Shown here piece by piece: positions 10,046 to 51,400 of a stretch of DNA of 64,000 bases. The stretch is taken from the IMG/VR virus record IMGVR_UViG_3300046002_004363, positions 35,578-99,577 of that record. One strand, 5' to 3'. Both the position numbers and the translations under genes were made by a program. Within the stretch, counting starts at the first letter, position 1. Each line of letters begins with the position of its first letter. The notes beneath the pieces are model-generated. The model saw only the letters and a list, made by a program, of their open reading frames with translations, ran no database searches and was not told the DNA's origin. Source of the DNA: a virus.

Positions 10046-10606
10046 TTAAAATATAGGGATACCGATTCCTAATGAAATATAAGGCTTTAACGTTTGTGTT
10101 TCATATCCAACACCTCCCTTTAATAATATCTTATTCTTTATGTTCCAATCAATTCCTAAATTCAATTGATTGTTTGTATTGTACGATGCCGAAACAAAAG
10201 CCTTACTCCTATCTCTGTATTTTGTAATTGTGGTTTCTCTTATTGTATCGTTAACTTCTACCTCTGAACAGAAATCTAACAATTCCCCAGTTGTTGTGAT
10301 ATGGGCAATACCTTTAACTCTCTTGCCTTCTATCGGTTGGTTGTATACTTTTGCTGTAATTGACGTTGTGTCTGGTTTATCTAAATACACTAAAGACGTA
10401 TCAGTTTTTCTTATATACACAGTCTTGTACTTAGTAACAATATTATTGTCTTTTACCCTTAAAGTATCTGTTATCTTTATTATTTTATCTTTGTATGTTA
10501 TTGTTTCAGAGACACCTCTATATTCACAGAAATGCAATACAGAAAAAGCCATTACAACCCCAATAGCTATAAATATAACTCGATTTAATATTTTAGAATA
10601 AATCAT
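10046..10606 (-). CDS. Membrane-anchored lysis accessory / spanin-like protein
   Basis: N-terminal TM helix, C-terminal amphipathic beta strands ending in Phe; near endolysin. Confidence 0.45.
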   Translation of the reverse strand: MIYSKILNRVIFIAIGVVMAFSVLHFCEYRGVSETITYKDKIIKITDTLRVKDNNIVTKYKTVYIRKTDTSLVYLDKPDTTSITAKVYNQPIEGKRVKGIAHITTTGELLDFCSEVEVNDTIRETTITKYRDRSKAFVSASYNTNNQLNLGIDWNIKNKILLKGGVGYETQTLKPYISLGIGIPIF

Positions 10607-11801
10607 CGTTTAAAAAATTTGATATTGATTCAGATATTGTTCCATCACATAATTCTACTCCATTTGTAATTACGTCTGGATATAGAGTAACTTTTACATC
10701 TATAGGTCTTTCCCCAATAGTAGTGCTAAGAGAAGAAAAATTAAATGGAAACGTAATATAGTTACTAGTTAATGAAACATTTGTATTATATATATCTGTT
10801 CTTGTTTTCTTAATTTCAGCACCTGATTCAAACTCAATAAATACCGAAGCAACCTTAACATTGCTTGTTGTATTCTTGAATATAGGATCATTAAACTTTA
10901 CTCTTATAGAGTTTATTGGACTTGTAACATCATATACATAGTTTTGACCGTCTGAAAAATAAGTGGTATTTGTTAATGAATCTCTAAGCTCAATATGATT
11001 TGCATACGGTCTATTGTAGTATTGCGAGTTAATTGTATATACACCATCGCTTGATTCAATAGATATGTTATCTCCATCTGCTAATTCTTGAATTTCAATA
11101 GTAGGTATGTCTGATAAATAAGCAATCGTACCAGATGCATTTTGGAATGTAGCTGTTCTTGCAGTTGTTAGACCTGCTGGTTTTTGAATTGAGAATTTAT
11201 CGTTTGTAGAGTTATTGTTTCTTAATGTAATGTATCCACTTCCAGCTTCAAGTATATTATTTAGTTGACGGTTTTGAAATATGAAAGTGTCTTTATCTGT
11301 AAATATCTTACCGTAACTAGTATTTGTTTCATCATACAAGAATAAAGAACCTATTTTTGCGTCTTCCTGAGATACATTTCCTTGATTCAATACGTTATCT
11401 AAATCTTGTAGATTTGCATTAATTATAGATGTAATATCTATTTCTGTAAAATCACCTGATACAACTTGAGTTTCATCAACGCCATAAGTATCGTTATTTT
11501 TTCTAAATATAAATGTTCTTCCATTTAAAATTAAGAATACAATCTCATAATGTAATACAATAATTGGAGTTTCTGAATTGTTGAAATAATCCTCAGGAGT
11601 TGTTTCCTCTGAATCATTATCTACAATTGTAGTTATCTTTAGATTACCTCCAGTCTCTGGATCTAACCCACTTACTATGTATTGTCTTAATGCTGATACT
11701 TGATAATTCTTTGTTTGGTCAAAGTTATCGTTATCACTTCCAATTATAATATCGTTATCTGATATTAAGTTATCTATTGTGTATGTCTTTATTCTTGCCA
11801 T
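10593..11801 (-). CDS. Tail fibre / virion structural protein
   Basis: MARIKTY...IIGSD...TKNY head motif; LQDLDNVL and SGTIAYLSDI fibre-type motifs. Confidence 0.6.
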   Translation of the reverse strand: MARIKTYTIDNLISDNDIIIGSDNDNFDQTKNYQVSALRQYIVSGLDPETGGNLKITTIVDNDSEETTPEDYFNNSETPIIVLHYEIVFLILNGRTFIFRKNNDTYGVDETQVVSGDFTEIDITSIINANLQDLDNVLNQGNVSQEDAKIGSLFLYDETNTSYGKIFTDKDTFIFQNRQLNNILEAGSGYITLRNNNSTNDKFSIQKPAGLTTARTATFQNASGTIAYLSDIPTIEIQELADGDNISIESSDGVYTINSQYYNRPYANHIELRDSLTNTTYFSDGQNYVYDVTSPINSIRVKFNDPIFKNTTSNVKVASVFIEFESGAEIKKTRTDIYNTNVSLTSNYITFPFNFSSLSTTIGERPIDVKVTLYPDVITNGVELCDGTISESISNFLNDDLF

Positions 11802-11808
11802 AGTTACT

Positions 11809-12273
11809 TTATTCTTTTATTTCAAAATGCATCCAATCGTAATTCTTCTCTCTACCTAACGATATAAATCCGTGTTTATAAAATATATCAATCATAGGTT
11901 TATATTCTGGTCTAGCAAATCTTGCTGTTTTTGACGTTTCTTTTAATTGGTTTCTACCAGGATCTAAATCAATCGAAATTCCCCAAGAATGAGTACTCCA
12001 GTCATCACCACCTCTCATCTTTCTAAAGTTAAAACAACCTCCAAATAAATCAATACCAAGATCAACTATTTTATTATAGCCATAAACTCTATGTATTTCA
12101 TTAAATACAGCAAGGAATCTAGCGCCAACTAATTTATGGCATCTCATTTTAGTAACCTTTGTATCTGTATCCCAAGCTAATCGCATAGGGTACGGAAGAT
12201 TAATAGTCATAAGATAACCTTCACCAGTTACATTAGGTTTTCCGTATTTAGAAATTATCTCCTTTGTTGTCAT
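11809..12273 (-). CDS. Endolysin, M15-family peptidase
   Basis: R...WSTHSWGISIDLD...DWMHFE zinc-peptidase motifs. Confidence 0.85.
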   Translation of the reverse strand: MTTKEIISKYGKPNVTGEGYLMTINLPYPMRLAWDTDTKVTKMRCHKLVGARFLAVFNEIHRVYGYNKIVDLGIDLFGGCFNFRKMRGGDDWSTHSWGISIDLDPGRNQLKETSKTARFARPEYKPMIDIFYKHGFISLGREKNYDWMHFEIKE

Positions 12274-12427
12274 TCTTTTTATTCTTTAATAATTCTATGG
12301 TCTTCAATATGGTATAAATAATAGATACGCATAAAAGGAATATCTTTAATGTAGCTTCTACATTAGAAAAACTTACAGCCATAGCAAGCGAATTTAGTCC
12401 GTATATCTTCAAATCGTTAAGTGACAT
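12248..12427 (-). CDS. Holin-like membrane protein (59 aa, not in ORF track)
   Basis: MSLNDLKIYGLNSLAMAVSFSNVEATLKIFLLCVSIIYTILK...; hydrophobic core with charged tail; overlaps endolysin start. Confidence 0.6.
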   Translation of the reverse strand: MSLNDLKIYGLNSLAMAVSFSNVEATLKIFLLCVSIIYTILKTIELLKNKKNDNKGDNF

Positions 12428-12623
12428 TATTGTTCTTTGCTTTAATTAAACGTTCTGCTATATTTGTAGCGCCTTCTACAGCTATATACATTGTAGCTAC
12501 TATAGTCCAATTATCTGAATCAACCTTACTAAAGAATAATGCAATTGAAGCAACAATAAATACTGTTAACTTTCTGCTTATCCATTTATTTAAGTAAAGG
12601 TCTATTTTTTCTTTTCTACTCAT
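12417..12623 (-). CDS. Holin-like protein
   Basis: SRKL followed by two TM segments, upstream of endolysin. Confidence 0.6.
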   Translation of the reverse strand: MSRKEKIDLYLNKWISRKLTVFIVASIALFFSKVDSDNWTIVATMYIAVEGATNIAERLIKAKNNNVT

Positions 12624-12819
12624 CTATACAAGGCGTATATTCAATCCTTTCTAACTCATTTAATTGGTCGTGAATTGGCTGAAATGGTTCGTATGTAAGT
12701 GCGTCAAGACCTATAAACCATTTATCTGCCCCATCTTTTATAAACTCTAACCTGCAAACACCATTTGTGTAACCATTTAAAGCATTGTATTGTTCTGTAT
12801 TTGGATGTAAAACTATCAT
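12616..12819 (-). CDS. Hypothetical protein (possible fibre assembly factor)
   Basis: Short ORF following a fibre-like gene. Confidence 0.45.
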   Translation of the reverse strand: MIVLHPNTEQYNALNGYTNGVCRLEFIKDGADKWFIGLDALTYEPFQPIHDQLNELERIEYTPCIDE

Positions 12820-12820
12820 A

Positions 12821-13621
12821 TTAAACTAAATTTGTCATATAAGTATTAATTGCATTGTATAAATTTGTGTTCAAAGTTGCATCACCTCCAGAAGTGACTA
12901 AAGAAGCTCCCATTCCATAAACGGAAATTGTGTGAGTTCCGTAAGTTGTTAATGACCTAAAAACTAATTGAGGTGTTGTAGTTAATGCTGAACTATTACT
13001 AGTTCCACTTACACTTAAATTTGTATTTTGAAAGACTCTTATTTGATTACTTGCAGGTCTGTTAATTGATTTCAAACCCGTTCCTGATAAAGCACCAATA
13101 GCATTACTTGTTGTTCCATTGTTGATGTTTTGAGGTAAAACTGCATCAAAAGTAAATCTATTCGATAAACTACCGCTCACACCATCGATAGTTCCTGTAC
13201 CAGCAGTGTGTACCCAAGCAAATCTACTCGCATCACTTAGTTTATATTCTACCCCATTAGTTGAAGGAATAAAGTTTGTTGAAATAGAACCAGTGCTAGT
13301 ATTAGTAAATCCATTATTTGTAGCAAAAGTTAATGGATTGTTTAATGTAGATTGATATAATGTGGGAGTTTTCCAATTCAATGAAGCAAACGCATTTGTA
13401 GCACCCGTCCCAGTCGCAAAAACATAAAACACATCAAGTTTATCCCAAATGCCTCCTGCTTTTAAATCTAAAACTAACTGATTTTGTACAATTTGTTGTG
13501 CAGATGAAGGTATTGGATATCCAAGACTAGTAGCTCTATCTAATACAGCTTTGTAAGATGTGTCGTATTTAATACCAGAAGACCTATTAGCTCCTATTGC
13601 ATTTGCTATTGCTATAAACAT
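12821..13621 (-). CDS. Virion fibre/receptor-binding-like protein
   Basis: S/T/G/N-rich; LVLDLKAGGIWDKLD motif common in phage structural lectin-like proteins. Confidence 0.55.
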   Translation of the reverse strand: MFIAIANAIGANRSSGIKYDTSYKAVLDRATSLGYPIPSSAQQIVQNQLVLDLKAGGIWDKLDVFYVFATGTGATNAFASLNWKTPTLYQSTLNNPLTFATNNGFTNTSTGSISTNFIPSTNGVEYKLSDASRFAWVHTAGTGTIDGVSGSLSNRFTFDAVLPQNINNGTTSNAIGALSGTGLKSINRPASNQIRVFQNTNLSVSGTSNSSALTTTPQLVFRSLTTYGTHTISVYGMGASLVTSGGDATLNTNLYNAINTYMTNLV

Positions 13622-13622
13622 A

Positions 13623-13889
13623 TTACCAAAGAGCTATGATGTTAGATGCTGTTGTTCCTGTTGAATAAACCCTAACTACCTGCACTGGTAAGAAACTACC
13701 ATCTTGGAAGTTTGTAAAAGTTACTTCATCTCCTCCGACAGTCAATACTTTTAAATTACCTTTCGTACCAACGTAAAGCACACAGCCTCTATTCGGTGTT
13801 CCTGCTTCTGAAGATAATGATGGAATATTAGCTGTATTACTTGGTGTTACAGCAGCAGCTCTATTTGCTTGTAATTTTTGATATGACAT
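13623..13889 (-). CDS. Small virion structural protein
   Basis: AVTPS...LYVG..G.L.V...G.FLPVQV.RV..TGTTA..I.AL conserved pattern. Confidence 0.6.
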   Translation of the reverse strand: MSYQKLQANRAAAVTPSNTANIPSLSSEAGTPNRGCVLYVGTKGNLKVLTVGGDEVTFTNFQDGSFLPVQVVRVYSTGTTASNIIALW

Positions 13890-19878: not shown

Positions 19879-20511
19879 TTAAAATGTTTTGCTTAATGTA
19901 AATATCTCTGAATAAATTGAATCTTCTGCATTAGCTGAACCCCATTTAGCGGTTACGTCTAGCGTGTTATTTATTGTTGTATTGAATGTATTTATAGTAC
20001 TAAAGTTAGTTCCCTCAAATGCCAATCCAGCATTTCTATTATATGAGAATATACCGCCAGACGCTACAGATCCATTACTACCAACACTTCTGACTGTAAA
20101 GTATATGTTTAGCTCCCAGTGTCTATTACTTATTGTGTCTAAATCAATTATTCCTGTATCAGCAAGTATTACAGATCCTGCCTTAATATTTAATCTTAAG
20201 GTTGCAGCTGAGTTGCAAGATATATGACCAATTAACTTTGCGTGATATGAATCCCCAACCTTAAATGCATTTGCAGGAACAGATAATGATCCAACACCAC
20301 TACCAATTAAACTACTTTCTGTAGCTGTGTTTGCTATTGGAGTGCTACTTGTTGTTTGAGCGAATAGACCTACTAGTGGATTTATATAACCATAAATATC
20401 TTGTAGCGAGTAGTATTCGGTTTTTGAATCATTAAGAGACCCTTTCTTCTCGCTTAAATCAACCTTAGAAGAATCTACACCTAAGAATCTTGTATTGGTA
20501 TCTATAGACAT
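19879..20511 (-). CDS. Structural protein, paralogue family A
   Basis: TRFLGVD...DLSEKK...EYYSLQDI N-terminus with beta-rich C-terminal domain. Confidence 0.65.
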   Translation of the reverse strand: MSIDTNTRFLGVDSSKVDLSEKKGSLNDSKTEYYSLQDIYGYINPLVGLFAQTTSSTPIANTATESSLIGSGVGSLSVPANAFKVGDSYHAKLIGHISCNSAATLRLNIKAGSVILADTGIIDLDTISNRHWELNIYFTVRSVGSNGSVASGGIFSYNRNAGLAFEGTNFSTINTFNTTINNTLDVTAKWGSANAEDSIYSEIFTLSKTF

Positions 20512-20514
20512 AAT

Positions 20515-20649
20515 CTATTTCTTCTTAAAAGCCGTACCCATCTTCTCTTTCTTCTCAAAAGCCTTACCTTCTTTTTTCTCGTGCTTAGCCTTAGCTGTTT
20601 TAGAAGTGTATTTTTCTTTTCCTCCGTATTCTTTAATCATTTTTTTCAT
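20515..20649 (-). CDS. Small basic protein (44 aa; start revised)
   Basis: Promoter TATCTTTG at 20678-20685 lies inside the longer ORF call, favouring the ATG at 20649. Confidence 0.55.
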   Translation of the reverse strand: MKKMIKEYGGKEKYTSKTAKAKHEKKEGKAFEKKEKMGTAFKKK

Positions 20650-20689
20650 ATCGTAGAATGTTTTTATTTTTGATTTGCAAAGATACAAA

Positions 20690-20908
20690 TTATTCAACCA
20701 CCTTTATAAAGTTTCCATTCTTATCGTGTAGTGTAGTTAACTCAAACTTTTTATCTAAACCACTAAGTACCACTTCATTTAATTGAAATACCATTTGAAA
20801 TACATTGAAGTCAACTGAACCTCCGTTCTCTTTGTAGTATCTGTAAAACCAACCTATATCGAATTGATTGGTATTTCTCATTTGTATATATTGTTCTCTA
20901 TATTTCAT
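20690..20908 (-). CDS. Hypothetical protein
   Basis: Co-oriented ORF. Confidence 0.5.
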   Translation of the reverse strand: MKYREQYIQMRNTNQFDIGWFYRYYKENGGSVDFNVFQMVFQLNEVVLSGLDKKFELTTLHDKNGNFIKVVE

Positions 20909-20911
20909 AAT

Positions 20912-21760
20912 TTATTTATTTAATTTATCCCAATGTTTAGTTACAGTTATTCTTGACACACCTGATTTTTCTGAAACAGAATTTTTATTTATCTTTTCGT
21001 TATTCAATTTCATTTCATTTATAACGGATTGTATTTCATTTATCTTTTCTTGCTTATTTAATTCATTTTTATTTACAACCAAGTCATAACCTTCAAGTCT
21101 TATGTTTTTAGATACATATTCTTCGTAATGTCTTTTAACTGTATTGAATGATATTTTTGTTCTATCTACTATCTCGTTTATATAGCATTTATCTAAACCA
21201 TCTTTTTCTTCATTTATTATCTTGATAGTCTCAATTATTAAATCTCTTTTATTCATACTTTTTACTTTATTTAAAAATGTTAATGCTTCTTTTTGTTTTT
21301 TCTTTGCTTTAAAATCAGAATAATATTTATCTTTTTTATAACCATCAAGTGAATTATACATATCTAATTCTTCTTTAGTCATAACAAATAATTCATCTAA
21401 ATTTGTTTTCCACATTATTTTTTTGTCTTCATAAATCATATTCAACATTTCTTGACTAAATTCTTTGTTAAAACATTCTTCTGCTATCGAATATATATCA
21501 TACTCTGAAACATATATCCCCTTTATCTTTTTTGTTTTCCTTATTAAAGATATACCCTCATCTACCAACATACCAATATTAACATCATCATTCAAATACA
21601 TTAGTTTATAGAAAAAAGACTCAACATTCCTCATTGCAGATGCTCTTGTATAATTAATACCAACATATCTTGCATCAACACAAGTATATCCATCTGGATA
21701 ATACCAAAAGTATTTATGCTCAATAGCTGTGGTTTTATTTATAGTTCTATAGTAAATCAT
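20912..21760 (-). CDS. DNA-binding protein with two HTH motifs (start revised)
   Basis: INEIVDRTKISFNTVKRHY and NSVSEKSGVSRITVTKHW; promoter TATATTTG at 21766-21773. Confidence 0.6.
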   Translation of the reverse strand: MIYYRTINKTTAIEHKYFWYYPDGYTCVDARYVGINYTRASAMRNVESFFYKLMYLNDDVNIGMLVDEGISLIRKTKKIKGIYVSEYDIYSIAEECFNKEFSQEMLNMIYEDKKIMWKTNLDELFVMTKEELDMYNSLDGYKKDKYYSDFKAKKKQKEALTFLNKVKSMNKRDLIIETIKIINEEKDGLDKCYINEIVDRTKISFNTVKRHYEEYVSKNIRLEGYDLVVNKNELNKQEKINEIQSVINEMKLNNEKINKNSVSEKSGVSRITVTKHWDKLNK

Positions 21761-22346
21761 ATATGCAAATATACGAAAAATATGTATATAAATTACGCTA
21801 TCAATATACAATTATTAACTTATATTAAAAATGTATATACCTATTCAAACCATCCTTTTATAATATACGGACATTAATGGTGTATACACTTTTATCAATA
21901 ATTTGTTATATATTCTATGTTAGATAAGTCTGTTGTAGTTAGTATGGTCTGTTGTTGTGATTATAACCCCACCCTACGATCACCACCCTCCCCACCAAAA
22001 CCATCCACCAAAGCCTACGGGGGTAACCTTTCAAAATGTTTCTCCAAAAGTTTTTACCTTTTTAGCCTGGATTGATGTCGTGGTACATTACAGCCTACTT
22101 ATTTAACGGCACAATATTGTAGTTAATCCATTCAACGTTTTAGGTAATCAACTTTTAAAACCAAAATACAAAGGTTTTATTTTTTTGTGGTGTGAAGTGG
22201 CTTTTGTCGGTGCAACTAATCCCAAAACCTAAAGCAATTTTAACCTAAAATAACTACATTCTAAAAGTTAAGTTCTTAAATTATAATAATATCATAAAAT
22301 TGTATAAAATGTAACTACTTGAAAATCAAAGGCTTTAATAATAATC

Positions 22347-22417
22347 AAGTTAAAAAGTGTTAAAGTTTTGTTAAAGGTATTGTTATCTAAAATTAAATAC
22401 CTATATTTGTAGTGTAA
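22347..22417 (+). promoter_or_regulatory. Early promoter P1
   Basis: GTTAAAAAGTGTTAAAGTTTT upstream block plus TATATTTG (22402-22409). Confidence 0.7.
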
Positions 22418-22583
22418 TAATGAAACAAAGTTCTTTTATATACATTATGTAATACACGATAAGGCTAAACCACAGGTATACTATAAAATAAGTAAATGTG
22501 AAATAGGCAAACATCCGAGTATTGTAAGTTAGTTGGTCACACGTTACGCAAAGCAGTATGGTACACAAGGCGATAAGATAGCA

Positions 22584-22646
22584 AATGTTAAAAAAGTGTT
22601 AAAGTTTTTGTATATTAAATAACTTGTTATATATTTGCAGTGTTAA
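22584..22646 (+). promoter_or_regulatory. Early promoter P2 (near-duplicate of P1)
   Basis: GTTAAAAAAGTGTTAAAGTTTT plus TATATTTG (22630-22637). Confidence 0.7.
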
Positions 22647-22815
22647 GTAGAGACAAACTACTTCAAAATAAATCAGCTGATACCACAGGCTTACGATGTG
22701 GAGGTAGTCATAAAAGACTATAAAATAGGGTGTGGTCACTCAGGAATAAGCGGTAAAAAGTAATCCGTGAAGTCCGAGACTACGATACTGCCAACTACAT
22801 AGGTATAAGGTCGTT

Positions 22816-22870
22816 AAGCGTATAAGGATGTGTTATCCTTACTGAAGAGAGGCAGAACCTCGAAACGCTT
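22816..22870 (+). ncRNA. Hammerhead ribozyme, type III
   Basis: AAGC-GUA; stem I UAAGGAU/AUCCUUA; core CUGAAGA; stem II GAGG/CCUC; GAAA; stem III CGCUU; predicted cut after A22822. Confidence 0.9.
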
Positions 22871-22886
22871 TTTAAAATTATACACT

Positions 22887-22997
22887 ATGAAGAATAAACT
22901 TAAGGTTATAGCGCTACTAATTGTGGCGCTATTTCTATTAGCAGTAGCAGAAAAACATTGTGAAACCAAAAATAAATACTATGAAGGGCAGAAGTAA
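22887..22997 (+). CDS. 36-aa single-TM peptide (not in ORF track)
   Basis: MKNKLKVIALLIVALFLLAVAEKHCETKNKYYEGQK; first ORF after the ribozyme. Confidence 0.5.
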   Translation: MKNKLKVIALLIVALFLLAVAEKHCETKNKYYEGQK

Positions 22998-23130
22998 TTC
23001 AAGTAGCAGAAGGTTAGCCTTAACCATCAGCACAAGCAGTACAATGAATGATTTTATTAACAAAAAATTAGGAGTAACTAAAGAAAACAAACGACCAATT
23101 TTAATCAAACCAACTAAAAAATAATATATT

Positions 23131-23319
23131 ATGGACAAATCTTATTCAATTTTTTGCATCGCAAGTCAGTTATTAAAAGATAACGAAAGAGAGTTAGATA
23201 TAGTTTGGCAAAATGCAACCGAACTATACAACGAATTTTTAAATAGTAGTTTCGATAATGTTAACGAATCGGAGTTGGACTGCATAAATGATTTTTTAAA
23301 TTATAAAAATCTAATATAA
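23131..23319 (+). CDS. Early hypothetical protein
   Basis: A-rich leader, coupled to next ORF. Confidence 0.55.
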   Translation: MDKSYSIFCIASQLLKDNERELDIVWQNATELYNEFLNSSFDNVNESELDCINDFLNYKNLI

Positions 23320-23660
23320 TGAAAACACTACAAATTAATTTGGGATTAAATAATAATCCAATGGATCGTGATCAGGTAGCTAACTACTTTTATGCACTAT
23401 CTGAGTATAGACTAATGGCTTATATCATCAAGGATAAGACCTTTAATGGTGAAGTAGAGCCTACTTTTGTAGCCTTATTAGAGCATAAGTACACACGTGA
23501 CAGCAAAATACTATCTGATGCTGAAAATTGGTGTAGCCTATTCACTCAGGAGTCAATTGCAGTAGTGACTGATAAAATGGAGGTGCTTGCATTCAATACG
23601 AAGTACGAAGGAGATACCTACAAATTTGATTCTAGTCTATTTGAATACATTAAAATATAA
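23319..23660 (+). CDS. Early hypothetical protein
   Basis: 113-aa ORF. Confidence 0.6.
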   Translation: MKTLQINLGLNNNPMDRDQVANYFYALSEYRLMAYIIKDKTFNGEVEPTFVALLEHKYTRDSKILSDAENWCSLFTQESIAVVTDKMEVLAFNTKYEGDTYKFDSSLFEYIKI

Positions 23661-23729
23661 CCTTATGAGAGCAATTATAAAATTTTTAGAAGAGTTAGCT
23701 AAGAATTGTCCGAGCGAGACAAAATGGTA

Positions 23730-23787
23730 GGCAAACTGATGAGGTTTTAATAACCGAAACTTGGATCTTCGGATCTGAGTCTTTGTC
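23730..23787 (+). ncRNA. Hammerhead ribozyme, type I
   Basis: Stem I GGCAAA/UUUGUC; core CUGAUGA; stem II GGUU/AACC; GAAA; stem III CUUGGAUC-UUCG-GAUCUGAG; GUC triplet, predicted cut after C23781. Confidence 0.92.
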
Positions 23788-23809
23788 AAACTTTAAAAAC
23801 AATACTAAT

Positions 23810-24061
23810 ATGAGAACAAAACAAGTTTTAGAATACATAGAAAACACACTAAATCAAACACCTAGACACAATTGTACAGCACTAGCTAAGGCTATAACCC
23901 AAGCTAGTAAAAAATTCAAGCAGGACCAATTCGATATGATGATGTTACTACTGGAAAATAAACCAATAGGAGGTCACACTCATAGCTATGGTTTCCACAC
24001 GTCATACGGAAGAGATCTAATAGACACAATGTCAAACTATTACTATAAATTTAATAACTAA
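23810..24061 (+). CDS. Early hypothetical protein (start revised to ATG 23810)
   Basis: The TTG start in the track lies inside the ribozyme; A-rich leader precedes ATG 23810. Confidence 0.55.
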   Translation: MRTKQVLEYIENTLNQTPRHNCTALAKAITQASKKFKQDQFDMMMLLLENKPIGGHTHSYGFHTSYGRDLIDTMSNYYYKFNN

Positions 24062-24074
24062 AACCAAGCATATT

Positions 24075-24491
24075 ATGAGTAATTATAAAACATTTTACGA
24101 AAATACAATTGTAGACAATATAGATTTAGAGTCTTATGGTTTATCTAATGACGTATACCTATACGATAAAATTAAAACAACGTACAACATATTCAAACAA
24201 GAGTATGGTTTTATGATTGATAGAGTAGGCGAAGTAAACGCATTTAAAGAATGGTTAATGGGATTACCAAGTGTCTTAAGTGTTCCGTTTATGAATAGCG
24301 AAATATTGTCTTTAGCAAAAGATAATGGATTCCTTAACGTGCAATGCATAACAAACCATATAGATGGTAGTAAAACAACTGAATATGTTTATGCAGAAGG
24401 CAGAATGTTAGAACGTATAGAAGATAGATTTTTAAATAACTATTGGACTAACTTAGCCTTAGCTTTTTTTAACTTAAAAGATAACCTTTAA
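24075..24491 (+). CDS. Early hypothetical protein
   Basis: EWLMGLPS motif; operon context. Confidence 0.6.
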   Translation: MSNYKTFYENTIVDNIDLESYGLSNDVYLYDKIKTTYNIFKQEYGFMIDRVGEVNAFKEWLMGLPSVLSVPFMNSEILSLAKDNGFLNVQCITNHIDGSKTTEYVYAEGRMLERIEDRFLNNYWTNLALAFFNLKDNL

Positions 24492-24503
24492 AATTATATA
24501 ACT

Positions 24504-24800
24504 ATGGAATTTACAAACGAATTTAAGAGTACAAGAAGTGGTTTTAATCACACGTCTAAACTATGGAGTAGCAAAGGAGAGTTATTAGCCGTAGCGGTCT
24601 GCAGATACTTAAATAGAACATGGGAAAGTTATGCATTTCAATCATCAATGAAGTCTGCGGTTTATCAGGCTATAGAAAATCAAGTGCAAAAAGAAAAACA
24701 ACTGCAAAGGATAACAAGACTAACCAAGAGTAAGAGACTAGAGATAGAAAATTACTCATCAATTATAAATGAATTAAAGGAACTATATAAGACATTGTAA
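24504..24800 (+). CDS. Early hypothetical protein
   Basis: TRSGFNH...YLNRTWESY motif. Confidence 0.6.
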   Translation: MEFTNEFKSTRSGFNHTSKLWSSKGELLAVAVCRYLNRTWESYAFQSSMKSAVYQAIENQVQKEKQLQRITRLTKSKRLEIENYSSIINELKELYKTL

Positions 24801-25093
24801 TGAATATAAAAGACCAATTCAATAAAAGCAAAGGACTCCCTTTATATGAGATAGAAGTAACTAATCTAATTAGTAATAAAGATGACTTCATTATCTTCGA
24901 TATAACGGCATATAAAAATTATTTCAAGGTAACACATCAGCCACTTACTGAAGAGCAAGAAAATAGCTGTAAAATAGCCTCATTCTTTATGCCTATAGAT
25001 AATGAGGTTTCTTTAGAAGAACACCTTAATGAGTTATACCAAAAATGTTGTGAAGAAATAACAAGTAGTGATTATTATATTTTAAATGATTAA
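24800..25093 (+). CDS. Hypothetical protein
   Basis: Translationally coupled ORF. Confidence 0.55.
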   Translation: MNIKDQFNKSKGLPLYEIEVTNLISNKDDFIIFDITAYKNYFKVTHQPLTEEQENSCKIASFFMPIDNEVSLEEHLNELYQKCCEEITSSDYYILND

Positions 25094-25471
25094 AGATATG
25101 AGACCGAGAATTAATAGACGTGTGAATGTTCAGCAAGTGATTGAACACCTAGAGAACAAACGTAGAGTGTATTCAGAAGCTATTACAGACCTTATGAATG
25201 AAGAAGGTATATCTTATACCAAAGCAAAAGAATTGTTAAATAAAAGGCTATACGATAAGGTGGTCTTTAAATTTTAAGGTATGGTAATAGTAAACCAAAT
25301 TGATAATGAATTTTGGCAAATGAGATTGTTTGAACCGAGTAATAATATTTGGTTTGAACTTCTCTGCCTTGATTTAGAATCATTAACGCTACAAGCGAGT
25401 GTAATATATAACGTAGATTTAAACGAAGTCTTAAACTAATGAGAGTGAGAGACGCTAAATAATTCTAAGAT

Positions 25472-25678
25472 ATGACAGAAACTGCACAAATACACGGAAG
25501 TCAATTACATTTAGGAGAATTTATCTATGTAATAAATAGATACGGAAGATTCCTTAGGAAGATTACTTGGCTAAATACATACTACTTTGAATGGAATTCA
25601 GGTTATAGTAGTATAAACGAATTAGAATTAAATACAGATCAAAAAAGTAAAGTTAAATTTTTATTAAAAGAAGAATAA
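25472..25678 (+). CDS. Hypothetical protein
   Basis: TAAGATATG start context. Confidence 0.5.
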   Translation: MTETAQIHGSQLHLGEFIYVINRYGRFLRKITWLNTYYFEWNSGYSSINELELNTDQKSKVKFLLKEE

Positions 25679-25681
25679 ATT

Positions 25682-25822
25682 ATGGAAGAGTATAGTAATT
25701 GCTGTGGTGCAGGTAGACACCACATATATAACGAACTTTGTGCTGACTGTTTAGAGCATTGTGAGTTTGAAGAAGATGAAGACTTTGAATATGATGCGGA
25801 CATCGAGGATTTACAAAGTTAG
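25682..25822 (+). CDS. Small Cys-rich zinc-binding protein with acidic tail (46 aa, not in ORF track)
   Basis: MEEYSNCCGA...LCADCLEHCEFEEDEDFEYD. Confidence 0.6.
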   Translation: MEEYSNCCGAGRHHIYNELCADCLEHCEFEEDEDFEYDADIEDLQS

Positions 25823-26020
25823 ATGTACATTGAATGTACGAAACCAAATAATTAAGGGTATTATAACAAGAGGTAAGGCATACGATGTTATATGGAGTAA
25901 TGAGTACGGCTTTACCTTCCTTAATGATAAGGGTAAATTGTCTTTAGGTAGATTTAAAAATTGTCATATAATAAATGGCGATTGGGAAGTAATTTAAGAA
26001 ACAAAATATAAAAATATAAA

Positions 26021-26368
26021 ATGGAAGTAAAGAAATTCACATTATTTGAGGTGGCTAAGATATTAAGAAATCAACACCTAAACAAACTAAACTACAAAGA
26101 CTACAATAAATTTACTCAAGATGATTTTGAAGGTGTTGAGTATGTAAGGGTTAATAACAAGACAAGACCAAAAGATTTAGTAGGTAAGAGTGGTAGGGTA
26201 TCTAAGATGATCACCGCAATATCACCTAAGGGTAAGGAGATTGTATTCGATGGTGTTACAGATATTTGCGAGGCCTTAGATATTAAGGCTAAGAACTACT
26301 GGAGAAAGATGGCAGAGAATCAAGGGTACACTATTGTAAGTGTAGAAGAAGTAGCTAAATTAATTTAA
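26021..26368 (+). CDS. Hypothetical protein (possible NUMOD1/HTH C-terminus)
   Basis: A-rich leader; EIVFDGVTDICEALDI. Confidence 0.5.
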   Translation: MEVKKFTLFEVAKILRNQHLNKLNYKDYNKFTQDDFEGVEYVRVNNKTRPKDLVGKSGRVSKMITAISPKGKEIVFDGVTDICEALDIKAKNYWRKMAENQGYTIVSVEEVAKLI

Positions 26369-26558
26369 AGAAAAATAAGATGAAAAAAATACTTAAAAAA
26401 TTAGAGAAATTAAATAAAATAAGTGGTGATACCAATATGATACAGATATTCTCAGATGGCAGTGGCTTTGTATTGTATGAAACAGAAGATATTAGATTTG
26501 AATTTCTGAGTATTAAGCAATTAAAGAAATACCTTAAAACAATTTAAAAAGAAATAAG

Positions 26559-26771
26559 ATGGAAAATAAAGAAATACTTGAAGAAGTTGCTGAACAATTT
26601 GAATATACTAATGGTATATATGGATTTAAACAAGGTGCTAAATGGCAACAAGAACAAGACAAGAATAAGTATAGTGAAGAAGAAGTAATTCAACTACTAA
26701 TAAAATTCAATCAAGAAATTCAAGAAGTGGAAAATGTTAGAGGTTGGTTTGAAGAATTTAAAAAGAAATAA
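26559..26771 (+). CDS. Small mosaic hypothetical protein
   Basis: GAKWQQEQ..YSEEEV...WFEEFKKK modules shared with 39545..39832. Confidence 0.6.
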   Translation: MENKEILEEVAEQFEYTNGIYGFKQGAKWQQEQDKNKYSEEEVIQLLIKFNQEIQEVENVRGWFEEFKKK

Positions 26772-26774
26772 GAT

Positions 26775-26960
26775 ATGGAACACTTTAAATACAGATGGAA
26801 AATAGTTAATGTATACTACGAAACTATAGATGATGATCCAGAGTTAAGACCAGATATAGTACTTGATGCCGTTTATTATAATGGTATAGACATATTGCCA
26901 ATAATGAATGAAGTAGATTGTATTGAGTTAAAAGAAGAAATGTATAATCAATTATTTTAA
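26775..26960 (+). CDS. Hypothetical protein
   Basis: TAAGATATG start context. Confidence 0.5.
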   Translation: MEHFKYRWKIVNVYYETIDDDPELRPDIVLDAVYYNGIDILPIMNEVDCIELKEEMYNQLF

Positions 26961-26963
26961 AAT

Positions 26964-27131
26964 ATGAATAAGGTAGAAATTATTGCAGAATTAGATAAAC
27001 TAATGTATATTGCAGAACAATTAGAGAATACTTTTTTAGTTGGTAGACTTGAGGCAATAAAGCAATCACTTATAAAGGATTGGAATGAGAGTGATGCTTA
27101 CTATAAAATTATAAGTAATCAATTGAAATAA
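26964..27131 (+). CDS. Hypothetical protein (55 aa, not in ORF track)
   Basis: Its TAA stop is part of the TAAC box opening the cassette array. Confidence 0.5.
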   Translation: MNKVEIIAELDKLMYIAEQLENTFLVGRLEAIKQSLIKDWNESDAYYKIISNQLK

Positions 27132-27244
27132 CGGTTCTCGGCTTGGCGAAGTTGCAGAATGTTGAAATTAAACACTAAATATTACAGATTATGACTAAAC
27201 ATTCAGAAAATACCAAAAGTAGCAATAGCACAAAACCTGTGTTA
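27129..27244. repeat. attC-like site 1 (chimeric)
   Basis: TAAC 27129, GTTA 27241; right half 69/77 identical to site 4. Confidence 0.7.
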
Positions 27245-27463
27245 CAATCAGTTTTTTTTGACTTTGATTATTGGAATAAATGCAATGCTTTATGGAATGT
27301 TTCTCCGCATCATTCTTTTGAAAATTTAGTAGTCATTGAATATGTTGGAACAAGTAAAATGAGAATTTCTATTTGTGTTGAAAAAAATGAATTTGAATTA
27401 GGTTTAAATAGATTTTGGAGTGAGTTCAAACGTCAAAGTGAAAATAATGCGTTACGTAATTAA
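27191..27463 (+). CDS. Cassette 1 hypothetical protein
   Basis: Starts within site 1, stops at the next box. Confidence 0.65.
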   Translation: MTKHSENTKSSNSTKPVLQSVFFDFDYWNKCNALWNVSPHHSFENLVVIEYVGTSKMRISICVEKNEFELGLNRFWSEFKRQSENNALRN

Positions 27464-27472
27464 AATTGATTG

Positions 27473-27598
27473 TAACGTATGTGGCTTTAAGCAGTTGCCA
27501 ATAAAACTGCCTTAACTTTTGATTTAAAACTAATGATTACAGATACAAAACAACCTTTAAATTTAGCCGAAAGTGGCAATTGCTTAAAGCCGCTGTTA
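27473..27598. repeat. attC-like site 2
   Basis: Arms GTGGCTTTAAGCAGTTGCCA (27481-27500) / TGGCAATTGCTTAAAGCCGC (27574-27593): 18 Watson-Crick pairs plus 2 G-T. Confidence 0.85.
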
Positions 27599-27985
27599 CA
27601 AGCAGTGTTTTTAGTTCCTTATGTTCCGTATTATTTACGAATATTTGAACCAATTTACAACGAAAAATATACACTTGTTGGAATTATTGAAAATGAACTT
27701 TATTGCAAAGAAACTGAAATAGATGATTGTTTCTCTTTTGAAATAGACGAAAATACATTTCCAATATTAAGACCGTTGTCTGATTTTTACGATATAAATG
27801 CACCCGCATTTATTGATACAAATTTTGATATTCCAACACAATTAGTTTTGGTTGATTTATGCTCTAAAAAACAACATTATTCAAGCGTAAGATATTCAGA
27901 TATGCAAGAGTTTTTACGTGAACATATTGACATTTTCAATCTTATTGAACAAGATTTAGCCGTTTCAATCCACGATGTTGTGTAA
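27533..27985 (+). CDS. Cassette 2 hypothetical protein
   Basis: PYVPY...PILRPLSD...HIDIFNLIEQDLAV; starts within site 2. Confidence 0.7.
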   Translation: MITDTKQPLNLAESGNCLKPLLQAVFLVPYVPYYLRIFEPIYNEKYTLVGIIENELYCKETEIDDCFSFEIDENTFPILRPLSDFYDINAPAFIDTNFDIPTQLVLVDLCSKKQHYSSVRYSDMQEFLREHIDIFNLIEQDLAVSIHDVV

Positions 27986-27994
27986 CATTGCTTA

Positions 27995-28104
27995 TAACGT
28001 TCCCACGCTTGGCATCAGTTGCCTAACGGAATAATCAAATGAATTAATAAAAAACAATAATGTCAAACGAAACACTAATAGGCGATTGTGCCAAACGTGT
28101 GTTA
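27995..28104. repeat. attC-like site 3
   Basis: Arms CACGCTTGGCA(T)CAGTTGCCTA / TAGGCGATTGTGCCAAACGTG with one bulged T. Confidence 0.85.
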
Positions 28105-29411: not shown

Positions 29412-29485
29412 ATATAAATACTATATTTGCATACGGAGAAGCCGAACACCGAACATAGTAGGCAATACATTTTAAATTATATTAT

Positions 29486-45486: not shown

Positions 45487-48400
45487 TTAATTAGCTCTAT
45501 TACCATTTACCTTTAAATCTTTTCCTTCCTTATAACTTGGAAATCTTGACTTCAACTGAGTTTCTTTAACTCCTGGTATTACCCTTGATTTACGGAATTG
45601 ATTATCAGTACTATCCTTCTCTACATCCTCTTTACTTCTAAGAATATCAATCTTTGATTCTTCTATATCCTTGATTATATTCTCTCTGTACTTACCATTT
45701 GTATTTTGGTATATAACATCATTCCTCATCTTAGAATCTATCTTAGAAAAATCATTTACCCCTAAGATACCTAGTGGTGTAAATCTAACTAAGTCAGGTA
45801 TAGCATAATCAGTAGCCATATATCTATCCATCTTCGTTAATGCAGGGAATAATATATTAAACACATCTTGAGTTAACTGTTGCTTGCTTGCTTTTTCAGT
45901 TAATCCAGCCTTCACTGGTGTTTGAAATACATTATCCTTAAACGCATCATAACCTCTTTCACCTCTTCTAGCCTGAATCAACTGCTTATTAGCTAACTCA
46001 GCAGCATAATTGTAGGCTGCCTTTGTAAAGTTATTAGATCTTGATAACATCATTCCCATAAACAATTTAAGACCCTCAGTTGTAGTTATATCACCAATAG
46101 ATTTATTACTTCTGTAATCAGACAATATACTTGCTGTCTTCGTAATTATAAGTCTGTCTATCTGTTTGTTAGACTCTCTTATAGCTCTATTACTTAAGAA
46201 CTTAGTGTCAGACATATACTTCTCTAACTTTAAAGTGTAAGAATCGATTTGGTCTTGCGTAAATAACTTATAACCTTGTTGTGAATTAAGAAGTCCTAAT
46301 ACGCCTATAATCTCATCATCTGATTTACCAAATCCTTTATCCATATCAGAGAAGAATACCTCAACAAGTGATTTATCGTATTCGTATTTACCACTATTTA
46401 TTTCTCCTATTTTGTTCTTAACTTGATTGTCAAATAAATCTCTGTTAACATAACCATAAACAATGTCGTAAGCCGCAGCAAAATCTTTATTTTGCATAAG
46501 TTTATCTCTCATCTTGTTATACTTAACCAAATCCTCTCTAGTCAATTCAATTATATTACCATCAGCATCTTTTTGTATTGGGTAGTCTAATAATGAATTA
46601 TTTACCTCCTTAATGAAATCATCATCGCCTGACAACTTATCGAAAGATACTTTTAATTTCTCTTCATCATCGTCATCTCCTTTGAATAATCCCCATATAG
46701 CTCCAGTTATATAGTTGATTGCTAATGAATAAGAAGCTAATCTTATAGCTCCACCAAGAAATCTTCTTGCATTTCTACCTTCTTGATTCTCTATGTATGT
46801 ATTAACAGCTGTATTCATATCGTTTCTAGCATTCATATCGAAACTAGCAAATAAGTATGCTGCTTTATTCACAAGTGCATTAACTGCTCCAGGAACTGAG
46901 TTCTTAACTTGTTTTGATGCAATCTCCATAATACCAACCTTCTTCTCCATAGGGTTTGTACTACCATATAGATCGGCATTTTCCTGGTTAGCTTTATTAG
47001 ATGCTTTACTTATAGCGTCTTTATACTTCTTAAGGTATTCAACATCTCCTCTTGCTATCTTCTCTACATTAACATCTTCTCCTGTTTGTTTTAAGAATTC
47101 TTCGTAGAAAACACCGTTCCAAGATATTGCATAAGGCTTAACGTCTCCAAATCCTAGTAATGTATCCACAGCTCCAGATGCAGTATCTCTTATAGGGCCT
47201 GTAATATTGGTTTTAATCTTAAGACCTATATTTGATGATGGTAATCCCTTTGATAAGACCTCCTTATTAATACCTTTATTTATAAATTCAGTTCTCTCTG
47301 TATTTATCTTCTTAGATGAAATCATCTTGTTAACATCAGAAGCCTCAGCATTCTCATAGAAACTTCTTATCAACTCTGTTTCACTCTCACCGTCTTCCTT
47401 TATATTCACAAGAGCATTTGACACCTTATTACTGTATGAAATATACTTAGGATTTATAGTCATTAATTGCACCATATTCCCAGCAAAATCGACACCTCTA
47501 CTTATTATACTACCCAATGCTAACGTATAGAATGCTCTATCAGTTCCGTTTAATATCTTATCTGTAAGTGTAGGCTCTGTATGTATAGCTCCGTTTATAA
47601 GTAAGTCAAATTGAGAGTTCAAAGCTTTCTGAATACCCTTTAAATAAGGAAGTACATCGTTGTCTTTTGAATTCTCTGCAATAGCCTCATTTATAGCTTG
47701 AGTTATAGCTGCATACTCAGATCTTAATTGGTGTTGAAATAATACATTCCTAACACTTGAGAAGGCAGATGTGAAAGGGTTTAAATCAATAGGGTGTGCA
47801 GTACCAGTCTTATCTTCTAAGTTACCAGCCTTTATTGACACACTATCAATACCAAACTTGCTTTTTAGTCTAGCTAAATCATTTTCAGCTTGTTTAACCA
47901 CACTATTAAATACAGGATAGTACTCTACAATCATTGGGGCTGCATTAGAGTTTTGAAAGAAATTAGCTTCGTATGCATTGATTTGATTTTCCTCTAATAC
48001 CATTCTAATAGCATTTGCGGCATTCGCTTCCTCTGGTGTTAAATCATCTATTTGATTATTATTAGCTCTAACTTTATCAATAAATCCTTGAACAAGACCC
48101 TTCATATAGTTATCTTCACTTATCTTAGAGTTAGGGTCGCTTACAGTAGCTTCAAAGTATTCCATAGCTGATATAGAAGAAGTTGTTCCTACATTATTCT
48201 TAGCCATTGTATCAATCAAGTGATAAACAATCTTCATATAAGACTCTTGTGGATTCTTTGAGTTCTTATCTAAATCCCTCTTAGCTCTAAGTAATACTGA
48301 TTCTACCTTTTCTTCAGTCGATGCTATTCTTGACATAGCCTTACCAAATGAAGACATAAATGCGTTAAATAAAGGTGTATCTCCATATACCTTTACAGCT

Positions 48401-51400
48401 GCATCTATAGCTGATAAATTAAAGAGCTTAATTCTTCTGTCAATTATTTTTTGAGTTATATTCTTCTTCCTGATATCGTTCCATAAAGCTACAGGATTAA
48501 GAGGCAACCCAATAATCTCTCTTATTTTAAGTGGTATTTTAGCCGCTTTAATTTTATATACCCCAAACTTACCTGCCTTTCTTAACGTATCTACTAATGC
48601 ATTTTTATAATTTGTCTTTAGTTTATATATATATAATTCCTCTGCGTAGTCATTTACAATGTCATCATAAACCATAGAGTTTAATGAGTTCAATACATTT
48701 GTAAGCATATTATCAGGCATAGAATCCACATCTGACTCACTAAGACCAATCAATGCGTCTAATATTCTCCACTCCAAACTACCTTTAGTAGCATTTGATG
48801 ATTCAAATACACTCTTAATTGACGGTAACAATTCTTTTATAGAGGCTTTCTTCTTAGCTATCTCTTCTTCTTTCTTAGCATCCCTTTCTAATTTCTTAGC
48901 TTCCTTATCAGCTAATGTTTCAGGAGTCTCTCTTTCTCTAAATTCAGATTTATTATTCTCTATGAAATCAGATTCACCTTTAGTTAAAGTACCACCAGCA
49001 TCTATAATTTGTTGTATTCTATTTACTTCAGCCACATAATCACTATATGGTTTTACAATTTTATCAAATATTTTCTCAATAGTAGGTAAATCTGTCTCCT
49101 CTAAAGTCAATCCTCTACCAGACAATCTACTAATATAGTCTTTGTATTGTTCGAAGTCAGCATCATCTAAAACCTTCTTAAGTCTCTTAGGCTCTAATTT
49201 AGTAAAGTTTACAATCTTAGATGACATAACTTTATCTCTGTCACCTCTTTTATCCAACTTACCAACCTTTCCAGACATTACATTATCAAATGCATTTTTA
49301 CTATCATCCTTAGCTGTATTTACATCTCTATTTGTGTATAGATTATCTAATACAGTATTTATGTCTAATAGTTTTTCCTCAAAGTTTTGGTCTGTAATAC
49401 TTTGTATTTTAGAAGCAATAGATGTAATAGCTCTGTTTCCTATGTCTCCAGCCTTTAAATCTGTAATAGAAGCTTTTATAAATGCATTTGCTTCTGCTTT
49501 CAAGCTTTTTATTAAGGCAGCCTTATCTTTTTCAGCTACTGTCTTAAGTTTTTGAAAAGCCACACCTATATCATAAGCTTTATTTATTCTTTTTTGCTCG
49601 GTAGCTTCAGGTTTAATACCAACTACTTTATTTATTTGGTCAGATAGTTTTTTAGGCTTCTGCATTCTAACTGAAGGTTTGTCAATTTTAATGATGCTTC
49701 TTCTGTTTCTCTCATTGTTTACAGTTGTTCCTTTAGCTATACCATCTAAACTTTCATATCTAAGTTTATCTCCATCTACATTTGTAATTAAAGACTCTCT
49801 TCCGTCAATAATAGCGTAATCACCATCTTTAAATGTATCTAGTGGTCTCTCTTTAAAATCAATAGCCTTATCAGAAGGAGTAAGCTCCTTAGTTGTTTGC
49901 GCTCTAAGTTCAGAACCTCTCCATTGAGTTACAGCTATATCAAAACCATTCTCATTAGCTATCTGAGTTATAAAAGCACCTCTATGATTGTTGGTAAATG
50001 CTTGACCAGGTCTAACTTCATTGAATCTTTTCTTAGCTTCTTTCTCAAAACCAAGTGGATCAGAATCTATGTCGTATACCTTATCTTTAGAGATTAAAAT
50101 ATTATGCTCTACATTTCCAACTCCAGTCTCTTTTTGACCTTCCATTGTATAGAACATAGCTAAACCTCCAACAGCACTCAAGGCAGAAGCCTCTTCTCTT
50201 GAAGTGATAGCATTATTTCCTTGACCTGTCTTGATTACATCTCTCTTTTGGTCTGAGTAATGCTTGAATACAAAGTTGCCATCTCCATCTTCAGTTAGCT
50301 TTTCAGTTACTTTTACAGGTAATTCTTTTTGTTGTCTTTTTGAAGGAATAGTAGATATTTCTTTTACACCAGATCCATATGGAGCTATAGCTTGTGATGC
50401 TTGACTATTTTTTCCTAAGTATTTTTTAGCCATTTCTTTAGGCATAACCTCAAGTGCGTTTATTTTTGAGTCTGGAACACCTATAACTTCTCCTTCAATT
50501 GTATTTTCATATGTAGAATGATTCGAACCAGCTCTAACACCAGTAGGTTTCAATACTAACATTATATCATTCTGTTCAAAACCATTATCCTTATAAAATC
50601 CATCTCTAAAATCATCTAAATTGAAATATCCATCTAATGATTTTATGTATTTGTGAAATTCAGTATTAGGTTTTTTACCACTTTCATTTATAGCAATCAA
50701 GAATGGTTTCCTACTTGTAGAATTTCTTAAATCATCCCAATTTTCAATATTGTTTAATATATCTGTTATATCCTTAGTCGGTTTTGTTTTTAAGACTTTA
50801 TTTTTAAAGTTATCAAAATCACCAAAATTAGATATCATTTTATCAAATACTTTTTTATTAAATAACTTACTCACAGTAGGAGAACCGCTAATGATAAATA
50901 TGTAATCTGATTTATTAATATTGTTATTGATAGAGTTAATATTCATACTACTAGCCCAGATATCTCCTTCTTTTTGGTGTGCAAAACTAGGTCCTCCATC
51001 AAAATCTTTATTTATTCCTAATTGGTCGGCAACCCAAAACCAAACTTTTTGTTTTTTAGCAACGATATCTTCCAATAAGGAATAGATGTCAACTTTTTTA
51101 TCTGGAGTAACTAATGAATTATCATAAGAATCCTTAAAGTCGATTTTAGATTCACGCTTTTTAGGTATTCTAATTTCAGTTGGATTTCCAATAGGATTAG
51201 TTCCATTATCCAATGTAGACACATCTTCTACTCTTATTTCTTTACCAGTAGCAACCCTTTTAGCAATGGTATTCAACACATCAAAAACCTCGTTAGTTTC
51301 GAATAACTCGACACCAAAAGATTTAGCTATATTGTTTAACCAGTTCTTTATAATTTCCTTTACTCTTGTAGAGAATGATTCATAATTTTCAGCCAACATA

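Follow-up and report, generated by a model that had tools for sequence, protein, structure and literature searches.

A predicted type I hammerhead ribozyme and its companion mini-ORF in the early operon of an Elemovirus-like Flavobacterium podophage

Hammerhead ribozymes have been known in phage operons since 2011, and their biological role there is still open (PMC6765202). According to Perreault et al. (2011), clustered phage hammerheads that flank blocks of genes cleave both in vitro and in E. coli (PMC3088659), and the processing of transcripts is the role that has been proposed for them (PMC3088659, PMC6765202). According to the same report, fast hammerheads require a tertiary contact between stem I and stem II, and for the HHphage ribozyme of the haloviruses HF1 and HF2 a mapped 5' end agrees with the cleavage site (PMC3088659). 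Type I hammerheads of RNA viruses yield a translatable downstream RNA and promote translation (PMC13725137).

The locus described here lies in a stretch of viral DNA of 64,000 nucleotides (the window), which is part of a 99.6-kb IMG/VR virus record; the Elemovirus relatives are about 60 kb long. The window also carries a single 3260-aa ORF on the - strand (45487-55269), which is remarkably long for a genome of the podophage type. In about half of the 7.5-kb stretch that was tested (20500-28000), the DNA is ~89% identical to vB_FspP_elemo, a group of 60-kb podophages of the Baltic Sea that belong to the genus Elemovirus and have Flavobacterium sp. BAL314 as host. As far as the sequence allows it to be judged, positions 23730-23787 are very likely a genuine type I self-cleaving hammerhead, placed in the rightward early polycistronic mRNA of an Elemovirus-like Flavobacterium podophage. 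The parts of the predicted ribozyme are as follows.

23730-23787, + strand: predicted type I hammerhead ribozyme (core, stems and minimum free energy (MFE) fold)
23729, + strand: A on the 5' side of stem I, proposed tertiary partner of U23747 (first base of loop II)
23730-23735, + strand: 5' strand of stem I, GGCAAA, pairing with UUUGUC at 23782-23787
23736-23742, + strand: catalytic core C3-A9, CUGAUGA (hammerhead consensus)
23743-23755, + strand: stem II GGUU/AACC with loop II UUAAU (compensatory changes)
23756-23759, + strand: core G12 A13 A14 with A15.1, GAAA (unchanged in close relatives)
23760-23779, + strand: stem III hairpin of 8 bp with UUCG loop, CUUGGAUC-UUCG-GAUCUGAG (in this window only)
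23780-23781, + strand: U16.1 and C17, predicted cut at 23781/23782 (hammerhead consensus geometry)
23782-23787, + strand: 3' strand of stem I, UUUGUC (fold and family alignment)
23788, + strand: base directly 3' of stem I, proposed tertiary partner of U23751 (last base of loop II)

The original prediction had placed a type I hammerhead with a CUGAUGA/GAAA core and a GUC triplet at these very positions, and each of these parts was found there. The topology is that of type I, with stem I open and stems II and III capped. The core C3 U4 G5 A6 N7 G8 A9 ... G12 A13 A14 is present as CUGAUGA (23736-42) and GAA (23756-58), and the cleavage triplet N-U-H as G23779 U23780 C23781. Likewise, the standard pairs next to the core (1.1-2.1, 10.1-11.1 and 15.1-16.1) are formed by U23782-A23735, G23743-C23755 and A23759-U23780. 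Stems I, II and III measure 6, 4 and 8(+1) bp, respectively, and the MFE structure of a 68-nt stretch is the hammerhead three-way junction. The predicted boundaries held as well: the ribozyme overlaps the stop codon of a 21-codon ORF (UAG, 23728-30), whose G is the first base of stem I, and it ends at 23787, just before the leader of the next gene (23788-23809).

A descriptor covering three hammerhead topologies matched exactly two sites on both strands of the window (128 kb), namely 22816-22870 and 23730-23787, and these are the two hammerheads that had been predicted. Among 2198 dinucleotide-preserving shuffles, lax descriptor matches occurred at a mean of 0.099 per window, and one of the 218 shuffle matches reaches the 20 stem pairs of the candidate at 23730-23787. 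Recognition by Rfam Hammerhead_1 (RF00163; gathering threshold 34 bits), which had been named as a check, was not obtained: no family came up at gathering score in the window, and Hammerhead_1 was absent from an E-value scan listing matches up to E 10. The best Rfam match was RAGATH-1-hammerhead (RF03152), with 24.2 bits (E 0.52) against a gathering score of 56.3. A permissive Rfam scan of the whole window gave chance-level matches only, and a tRNA search of the window found none. Two sub-threshold Rfam matches elsewhere on the + strand, ToxI antitoxin inside the 113-aa gene upstream of the ribozyme (23525-23557; 20.6 vs 50 bits) and DUF805b (29432-29464; 21.8 vs 35.6 bits), are probably due to chance. 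A sibling of the window copy in contig L037 (5203-5260) scores 34.2 bits, above the Hammerhead_1 gathering score of 34, and thereby links the family with type I as curated in Rfam. A terminator or promoter reading of the site was rejected, as no terminator-like site was found at the ribozyme and sigma-70-like matches were fewer than expected from shuffles.

The window copy is a member of a type I family that counts at least 69 distinct phage copies and shows strong covariation in all three stems. A retrieval pattern which fixed just the core and the adjacent pairs returned 54 viral contigs, reduced to 48 non-redundant copies, and these were aligned together with the window copy using MAFFT (49 sequences). 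Paired cells make up 90.8% in this alignment, compared with 67.8% in shuffles; the covariation score is 0.594 vs 0.161 when shuffled, a value that none of 500 shuffles reached, and slid controls stayed at or below 0.165. Changes on both sides are seen in 13 of the 19 pairs, while the pairs with no or hardly any variation are those that the retrieval pattern had fixed. Stem I has 6 bp in every member, its outer three pairs covary and all its cells are paired. Similarly, stem II always has 4 bp, with 92.8% of cells paired and both-sided changes in three of four pairs, and A15.1-U16.1 is paired in 46 of 49 rows.

Two further pairs join loop II to the bases that flank stem I. A descriptor of geometry alone retrieved 69 distinct copies. 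In 67 of these, the base that ends loop II and the first base 3' of stem I are Watson-Crick partners (49 U-A and 18 A-U, the latter on about 15 different stem backgrounds), and in 62 the base that opens loop II and the base 5' of stem I are such partners (57 U-A and 5 A-U); none of 10000 shuffles reached either count. The window has the majority combination A/U/U/A, that is, A23729-U23747 and U23751-A23788. We infer that these two covarying pairs constitute the stem I-loop II tertiary contact of the family, and they offer a simple recognition signature for a family that is missed by Rfam thresholds. A family model (R1) was built in this analysis from the 49 seeds and describes a 6-bp stem I closed by G-C, a 4-bp stem II, a loop II of ~5 nt (UNAAU) and a free stem III. 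The window copy obtains 72.4 bits (E 1e-17), a match that is partly by construction because this copy is one of the 49 seeds, and independent copies obtain 50-77 bits. A copy with the window's stem II and loop II is also carried by the cultured SAR11 phage HTVC201P. This copy of the Pelagibacter phage (MH598802.1, ~2260-2324; L143, 1496-1560; 54.3 bits under R1) overlaps the 3' end of the annotated CDS gp08 and is followed by a MarR-family regulator gene after ~430 nt and by an integrase gene after ~790 nt.

The closest relatives provide a finer record of changes. All 68 elemo records of BAL314 contain the ribozyme segment at 89-92% identity, and the ribozyme is kept in all 68 cultured phages. 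When the window was aligned with seven representatives, the core was unchanged across the eight Elemovirus-group sequences except at N7, which is U or C. N7 is the one position of the hammerhead core that is free to vary. In elemoE and elemoA_7-9A, stem II GGUU/AACC has become GACU/AGUC, which is a double compensatory change. In elemoD_13-5B (L005) and elemoF_6-3D (L004), stem II reads GACU/AACC (locus ~1670-1731) and has two mismatches in 4 bp, and these copies score 62 bits under R1 vs 71-73 bits. The GACU/AACC combination appears to have arisen by recombination between the two alleles GACU/AGUC and GGUU/AACC, with the crossover inside loop II. elemoD and elemoF are two species-level lineages of viable isolates, and represent natural variants with partial loss of the structure. 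As isolates with a mismatched stem II are viable, an intact ribozyme would not be essential for plaque formation.

Stem III has been replaced as a whole and is nevertheless paired. In every elemo phage and in the nearest relative, L062, it reads CUAAAGCC-GUGA-GGCUUAGG, and L046 and L049 have further, different paired versions. The UUCG cap in the original prediction is hence a property of this window, the relatives all having other stem III sequences. Over the 743 nt compared between the window and L062, 11 of the 28 differences fall inside the 20-nt stem III and 17 in the other 723 nt (p = 3e-12), with zero differences in the mini-ORF, the core, and stems I and II. The swap leaves the predicted stability nearly unchanged (-14.3 vs -13.5 kcal/mol). 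A search for the exact 20-mer found no donor of the UUCG stem III. The sole other exact occurrence, at 13182-13201 of L142, was rejected as a donor, being a coincidence at chance level; there the 20-mer is the hairpin of an intrinsic terminator, with a G/C clamp and then a U-run, in an unrelated phage contig rich in GC.

The site is unlabelled as a ribozyme in the 68 GenBank Elemovirus genomes, an annotation that is corrected here. Six PHANOTATE-annotated records (L001, L003-L007) instead have a spurious 36-aa CDS on the reverse strand over the ribozyme (locus 1637-1744), which is missing from elemoB (L002), and the forward 21-codon ORF is annotated in none of the seven Elemovirus records examined. 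The PHANOTATE-derived entries would be explained if the motif were due to chance or if the region coded on the reverse strand, and the probability of this is practically negligible: the shuffle statistics and the covariation oppose a chance origin, wholesale replacement of stem III would rewrite any reverse protein, and the coding signature belongs to the forward mini-ORF instead.

A different question is whether the fold, although conserved, cleaves in vivo at all, or merely acts as a structured element such as a 3' stabiliser, a protein-binding site or an RNase entry site. The viable isolates with a broken stem II would agree with such a role. Against it, the stems vary freely around 11 conserved core nucleotides, none of which changes, a pattern specific to catalysis and not to a generic cluster of hairpins, and the tertiary contacts that covary are of the fast-cleavage kind. 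A non-cleaving element is therefore highly improbable. The selection for cleavage that had been suggested is supported in so far as it concerns the fold, through the compensatory changes in all stems and the two tertiary pairs, while cleavage itself is the predicted outcome. The relevant members of the operon are given below.

22816-22870, + strand: first hammerhead, type III, at the start of the same operon (descriptor and folding)
23319-23660, + strand: upstream early gene, 113 aa, whose homologue abuts the homologue of the downstream gene in L064
23810-24061, + strand: downstream early gene, 83 aa, with homologues in 73 viral contigs, mostly without a ribozyme

Positions 22887-25500 hold a run of small co-oriented ORFs on the + strand, as is typical of an early operon. 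The two neighbouring genes (113 aa and 83 aa) gave no Pfam family and no functional PHROG, the one weak PHROG match (E 0.004) being without an assigned function. The stop codon of the upstream ORF starts 2 nt ahead of stem I, with the next ATG (23810) 28 nt after the cut, which is the usual placement in the family. Of 51 contexts, 44 have their next ATG 20-35 nt past the cut (median 26), and in most of the 51 the upstream ORF (21-310 aa) stops within a few nt of the start of stem I. More distant relatives without a hammerhead at that position (L068, L069, L089 and L090) have a short hairpin, GUCGGACAAUCCGAC or CGGACAAGUCCG, just before gene starts, upstream of the homologue of the 83-aa gene.

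The first hammerhead has stems of 8/4/6 bp and a GUA site, with a predicted cut after 22822. It belongs to a type III family of its own, in which loop I and the loop of stem II are conserved, and its closest copies are in L010 and L047; in these contigs, the next ATG comes ~17-20 nt after the ribozyme. Half of the loci have several hammerheads on the same strand, up to five in 2 kb. For example, L030 has five type I copies in 1.9 kb (11853-13724), L010 has one type III and three type I copies (10204-11752), and L046 has a dense array (657-2539), on the same strand in each case. The independent acquisition that had been proposed for the two hammerheads of the window is supported by the absence of the cassette around the second one (described below) from L064 and its recurrence in unrelated contigs, and by the membership of the first in a separate type III family. 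The co-occurrence of the type I and type III families on the same strand of many unrelated contigs makes them look like a common operon toolkit and not two unlinked accidents.

The most likely role of the ribozyme is the processing of the polycistronic early mRNA. Hammerhead cleavage leaves a 2',3'-cyclic phosphate and a 5'-OH end. By the chemistry of this class, the RNA would cut itself between C23781 and U23782. The upstream product would end just past the mini-ORF stop with two hairpins and a 2',3'-cyclic phosphate, and the type I topology implies that the whole ribozyme body would remain on it. The downstream mRNA would be set free; it would begin with a 5'-OH and have an unstructured A/U-rich leader of 28 nt ahead of the next start codon. 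From general RNA biology, the stability and the translation of the neighbouring cistrons may be uncoupled in this way. The type III partner at the start of the operon would act the other way round, its ribozyme body staying at the 5' end of the RNA downstream of its cut; the segment between the two cuts would consequently have a ribozyme body at each end.

The same two cuts, after 22822 and after 23781, could also serve to release a 959-nt RNA for circularisation by an RtcB-type ligase. Several unrelated contigs show this order, a type III copy (stems of 8/4/n bp) followed on the same strand by a type I copy after 1-1.7 kb, and 5'-OH and 2',3'-cyclic-phosphate ends are known to suit RtcB. Nevertheless, many contigs have three to five type I copies and no type III partner, and an excised RNA with a ribozyme body at each end would equally well be a doubly protected linear mRNA. 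Moreover, Perreault et al. searched for products of clustered phage hammerheads that were spliced or circular, without finding any (PMC3088659). Circularisation is very unlikely to be the function of the pair. The second hammerhead is accompanied by the following elements.

23665-23730, + strand: 21-codon mini-ORF (MRAIIKFLEELAKNCPSETKW, stop UAG at 23728-30), recurring with the ribozyme
23706-23722, + strand: hairpin UUGUC-CGAGCGA-GACAA inside the mini-ORF (sub-threshold Rfam alignment to the extra 5' hairpin of RAGATH-1)
23788-23809, + strand: A/U-rich leader of the next gene, kept as part of the cassette (cassette homology)

The mini-ORF, the ribozyme in the middle and the leader form, in this order, a cassette of ~145 nt that occurs in six unrelated gene contexts. 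Homology among the unrelated contigs extends from the ATG of the mini-ORF to the ATG of the next gene (in cassette alignment A2, rows L052 and L042 were left out), and the phage contigs in which the cassette is found again have no more than one gene, a distant one, in common with the window. In the more distant relative L064, the two flanking genes have homologues (40% and 82% aa identity) that lie directly side by side, with neither the ORF nor the ribozyme between them; this marks the cassette as an indel, and other relatives without the hammerhead also have no cassette. Its presence in unrelated contexts makes insertion the simpler reading. In the elemo phages, the mini-ORF and the downstream gene (loci ~1606 and ~1752) both start with ATGAGAGCAA, and the downstream gene of the window starts with ATGAGAACAA (window positions compared, 23665-23674 and 23810-23819). 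The gene of the relatives without a hammerhead starts with ATGAGAG, and these starts may represent a microhomology or short duplication at the cassette boundary.

The mini-ORF evolves as a coding sequence, its substitutions indicating a peptide under purifying selection. For eight mini-ORF sequences of 63 nt, among them an elemoA row assembled from the close-relative alignment, the pooled pN/pS is 0.27 in frame vs 3.17 and 0.83 in the other frames, and third codon positions account for 10 of the 17 variable sites. The 21-aa peptide is 100% identical in the 68 elemo records, silent DNA changes notwithstanding. It gave no family in Pfam or PHROG, and a tblastn search of the peptide against cultured phages returned elemo phages only. 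The hairpin at 23706-23722 was rejected as a functional RNA element on account of coding constraint. The changes found in relatives weaken its pairing and are synonymous or conservative in the ORF (GAG>GAA, AAA>CGU), so the hairpin is probably a by-product of the coding sequence.

The linkage of this peptide to the ribozyme raises the possibility that cleavage depends on translation, the mini-ORF encoding a leader peptide of 21 aa and a ribosome that terminates or pauses at the UAG covering stem I and A23729; the release of the next cistron would then depend on translation as well. The stop codon is embedded in the fold: since the UAG supplies A23729 as well as G23730, which forms the first pair of stem I, a terminating ribosome and the active fold would be mutually exclusive. 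The mini-ORF is followed by a hammerhead in 12 of 12 occurrences in six contexts, with the same ORF length, stop position and spacing (a pattern for the ORF only, for which the ribozyme was not required, matched 5 viral and 6 metagenome contigs). The purifying selection on the peptide and the usual position of upstream ORF stops in the family, a few nt from stem I, also fit such a dependence. However, most members of the family follow ordinary genes of 40-310 aa and not mini-ORFs, and genes that abut tightly are an ordinary result of phage genome compaction. One copy in L060/L138 keeps its ribozyme beside a collapsed ORF remnant, and no arrest motif was identified in the mini-ORF. Likewise, the native mini-ORF in six cassette lineages was no more inhibitory to the hammerhead fold than 150 shuffles each, which gives no evidence for an RNA switch; under equilibrium folding of the 148-nt cassette, the hammerhead fold has an occupancy of ~2%, and shuffled upstream sequences behave alike, so that the low value does not count against the ribozyme. 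A competing fold between the mini-ORF start and the core, seen in one MFE structure, was rejected, being specific to the window and not conserved. Gating of cleavage by translation is hence rather unlikely. The wider proposal, in which the cassette is a mobile 'translation-coupled ribozyme' whose ribosome traffic and termination on the mini-ORF would time the folding and cutting of the hammerhead and the release of the cistron, is equally doubtful. If it is true, translation coupling would be the first defined regulatory input for phage hammerheads.

Some related arrangements may be mentioned here. The remnant in L060 (~870-960; same contig as L138, 3242-3307) belongs to a second type I hammerhead, with a GUA site, which lies 420 nt past the cassette; the sequence ahead of this hammerhead, 'atgagagataaagtggtag', resembles the mini-ORF after collapse by an internal deletion. 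ORFs that end with ...KHW-stop at stem I are found as a 25-codon mini-ORF in L010 and L047 (upstream of the hammerhead at 11698 of L010) and as 90-aa proteins in L019 and L050. Together with the ...TKW-stop of the window, they suggest a recurring UGGUA(A/G)G before stem I.

Processing of the early mRNA, retained here as the most likely role of the ribozyme, can be approached in an unusually tractable case, as the Elemovirus phages and Flavobacterium sp. BAL314 are a cultured phage-host pair. They bring with them a natural allelic series that comprises two compensatory stem II alleles, the broken recombinant in viable isolates and full swaps of stem III.

Compared with the described systems, the locus is closest to the clustered hammerheads of phages and prophages reported by Perreault et al. 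(2011). These are likewise encoded in DNA on the coding strand, with several per operon; they flank single genes or short blocks of varying identity, with processing of long transcripts as the proposed role, and they require a tertiary contact between stem I and stem II (PMC3088659). The present locus differs in its host group, which is Bacteroidota and marine phages, and in its contact, which consists of two isolated covarying pairs and not of a pseudoknot of at least 4 bp; it also differs in the fusion of the ribozyme to a conserved mini-ORF in a portable cassette, for which no description was found in the passages searched (PMC3088659). The HHphage of the haloviruses HF1 and HF2 resembles it in lying a few nt upstream of an early-gene start in a polycistronic early transcript, and is unlike it in being a variant hammerhead of an archaeal virus, placed at the first gene and not between genes (PMC3088659).

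Among the curated families, type I of Rfam Hammerhead_1 (RF00163) has the same topology and core, with the window copy below the gathering score. RAGATH-1-hammerhead (RF03152) is also of type I and has a hairpin 5' of stem I; membership in it was rejected on the score, on stem II (4 bp here vs a consensus of 1 bp) and on the upstream hairpin, which in the window is non-covarying and lies in coding sequence. The type I hammerheads of RNA viruses similarly fill a short intergenic UTR and cut a few nt before the next start codon; unlike the present family, they belong to eukaryotic RNA viruses, are without loop-loop contacts and have other stem II lengths (PMC13725137). A translational effect is demonstrated for those hammerheads (PMC13725137) and is only expected here. 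The kind of element is already known in phages, and the definition of the hammerhead is unchanged by this locus. What it adds to these systems is a portable cassette of mini-ORF and ribozyme, tertiary pairs that covary, and natural alleles in a cultured system.
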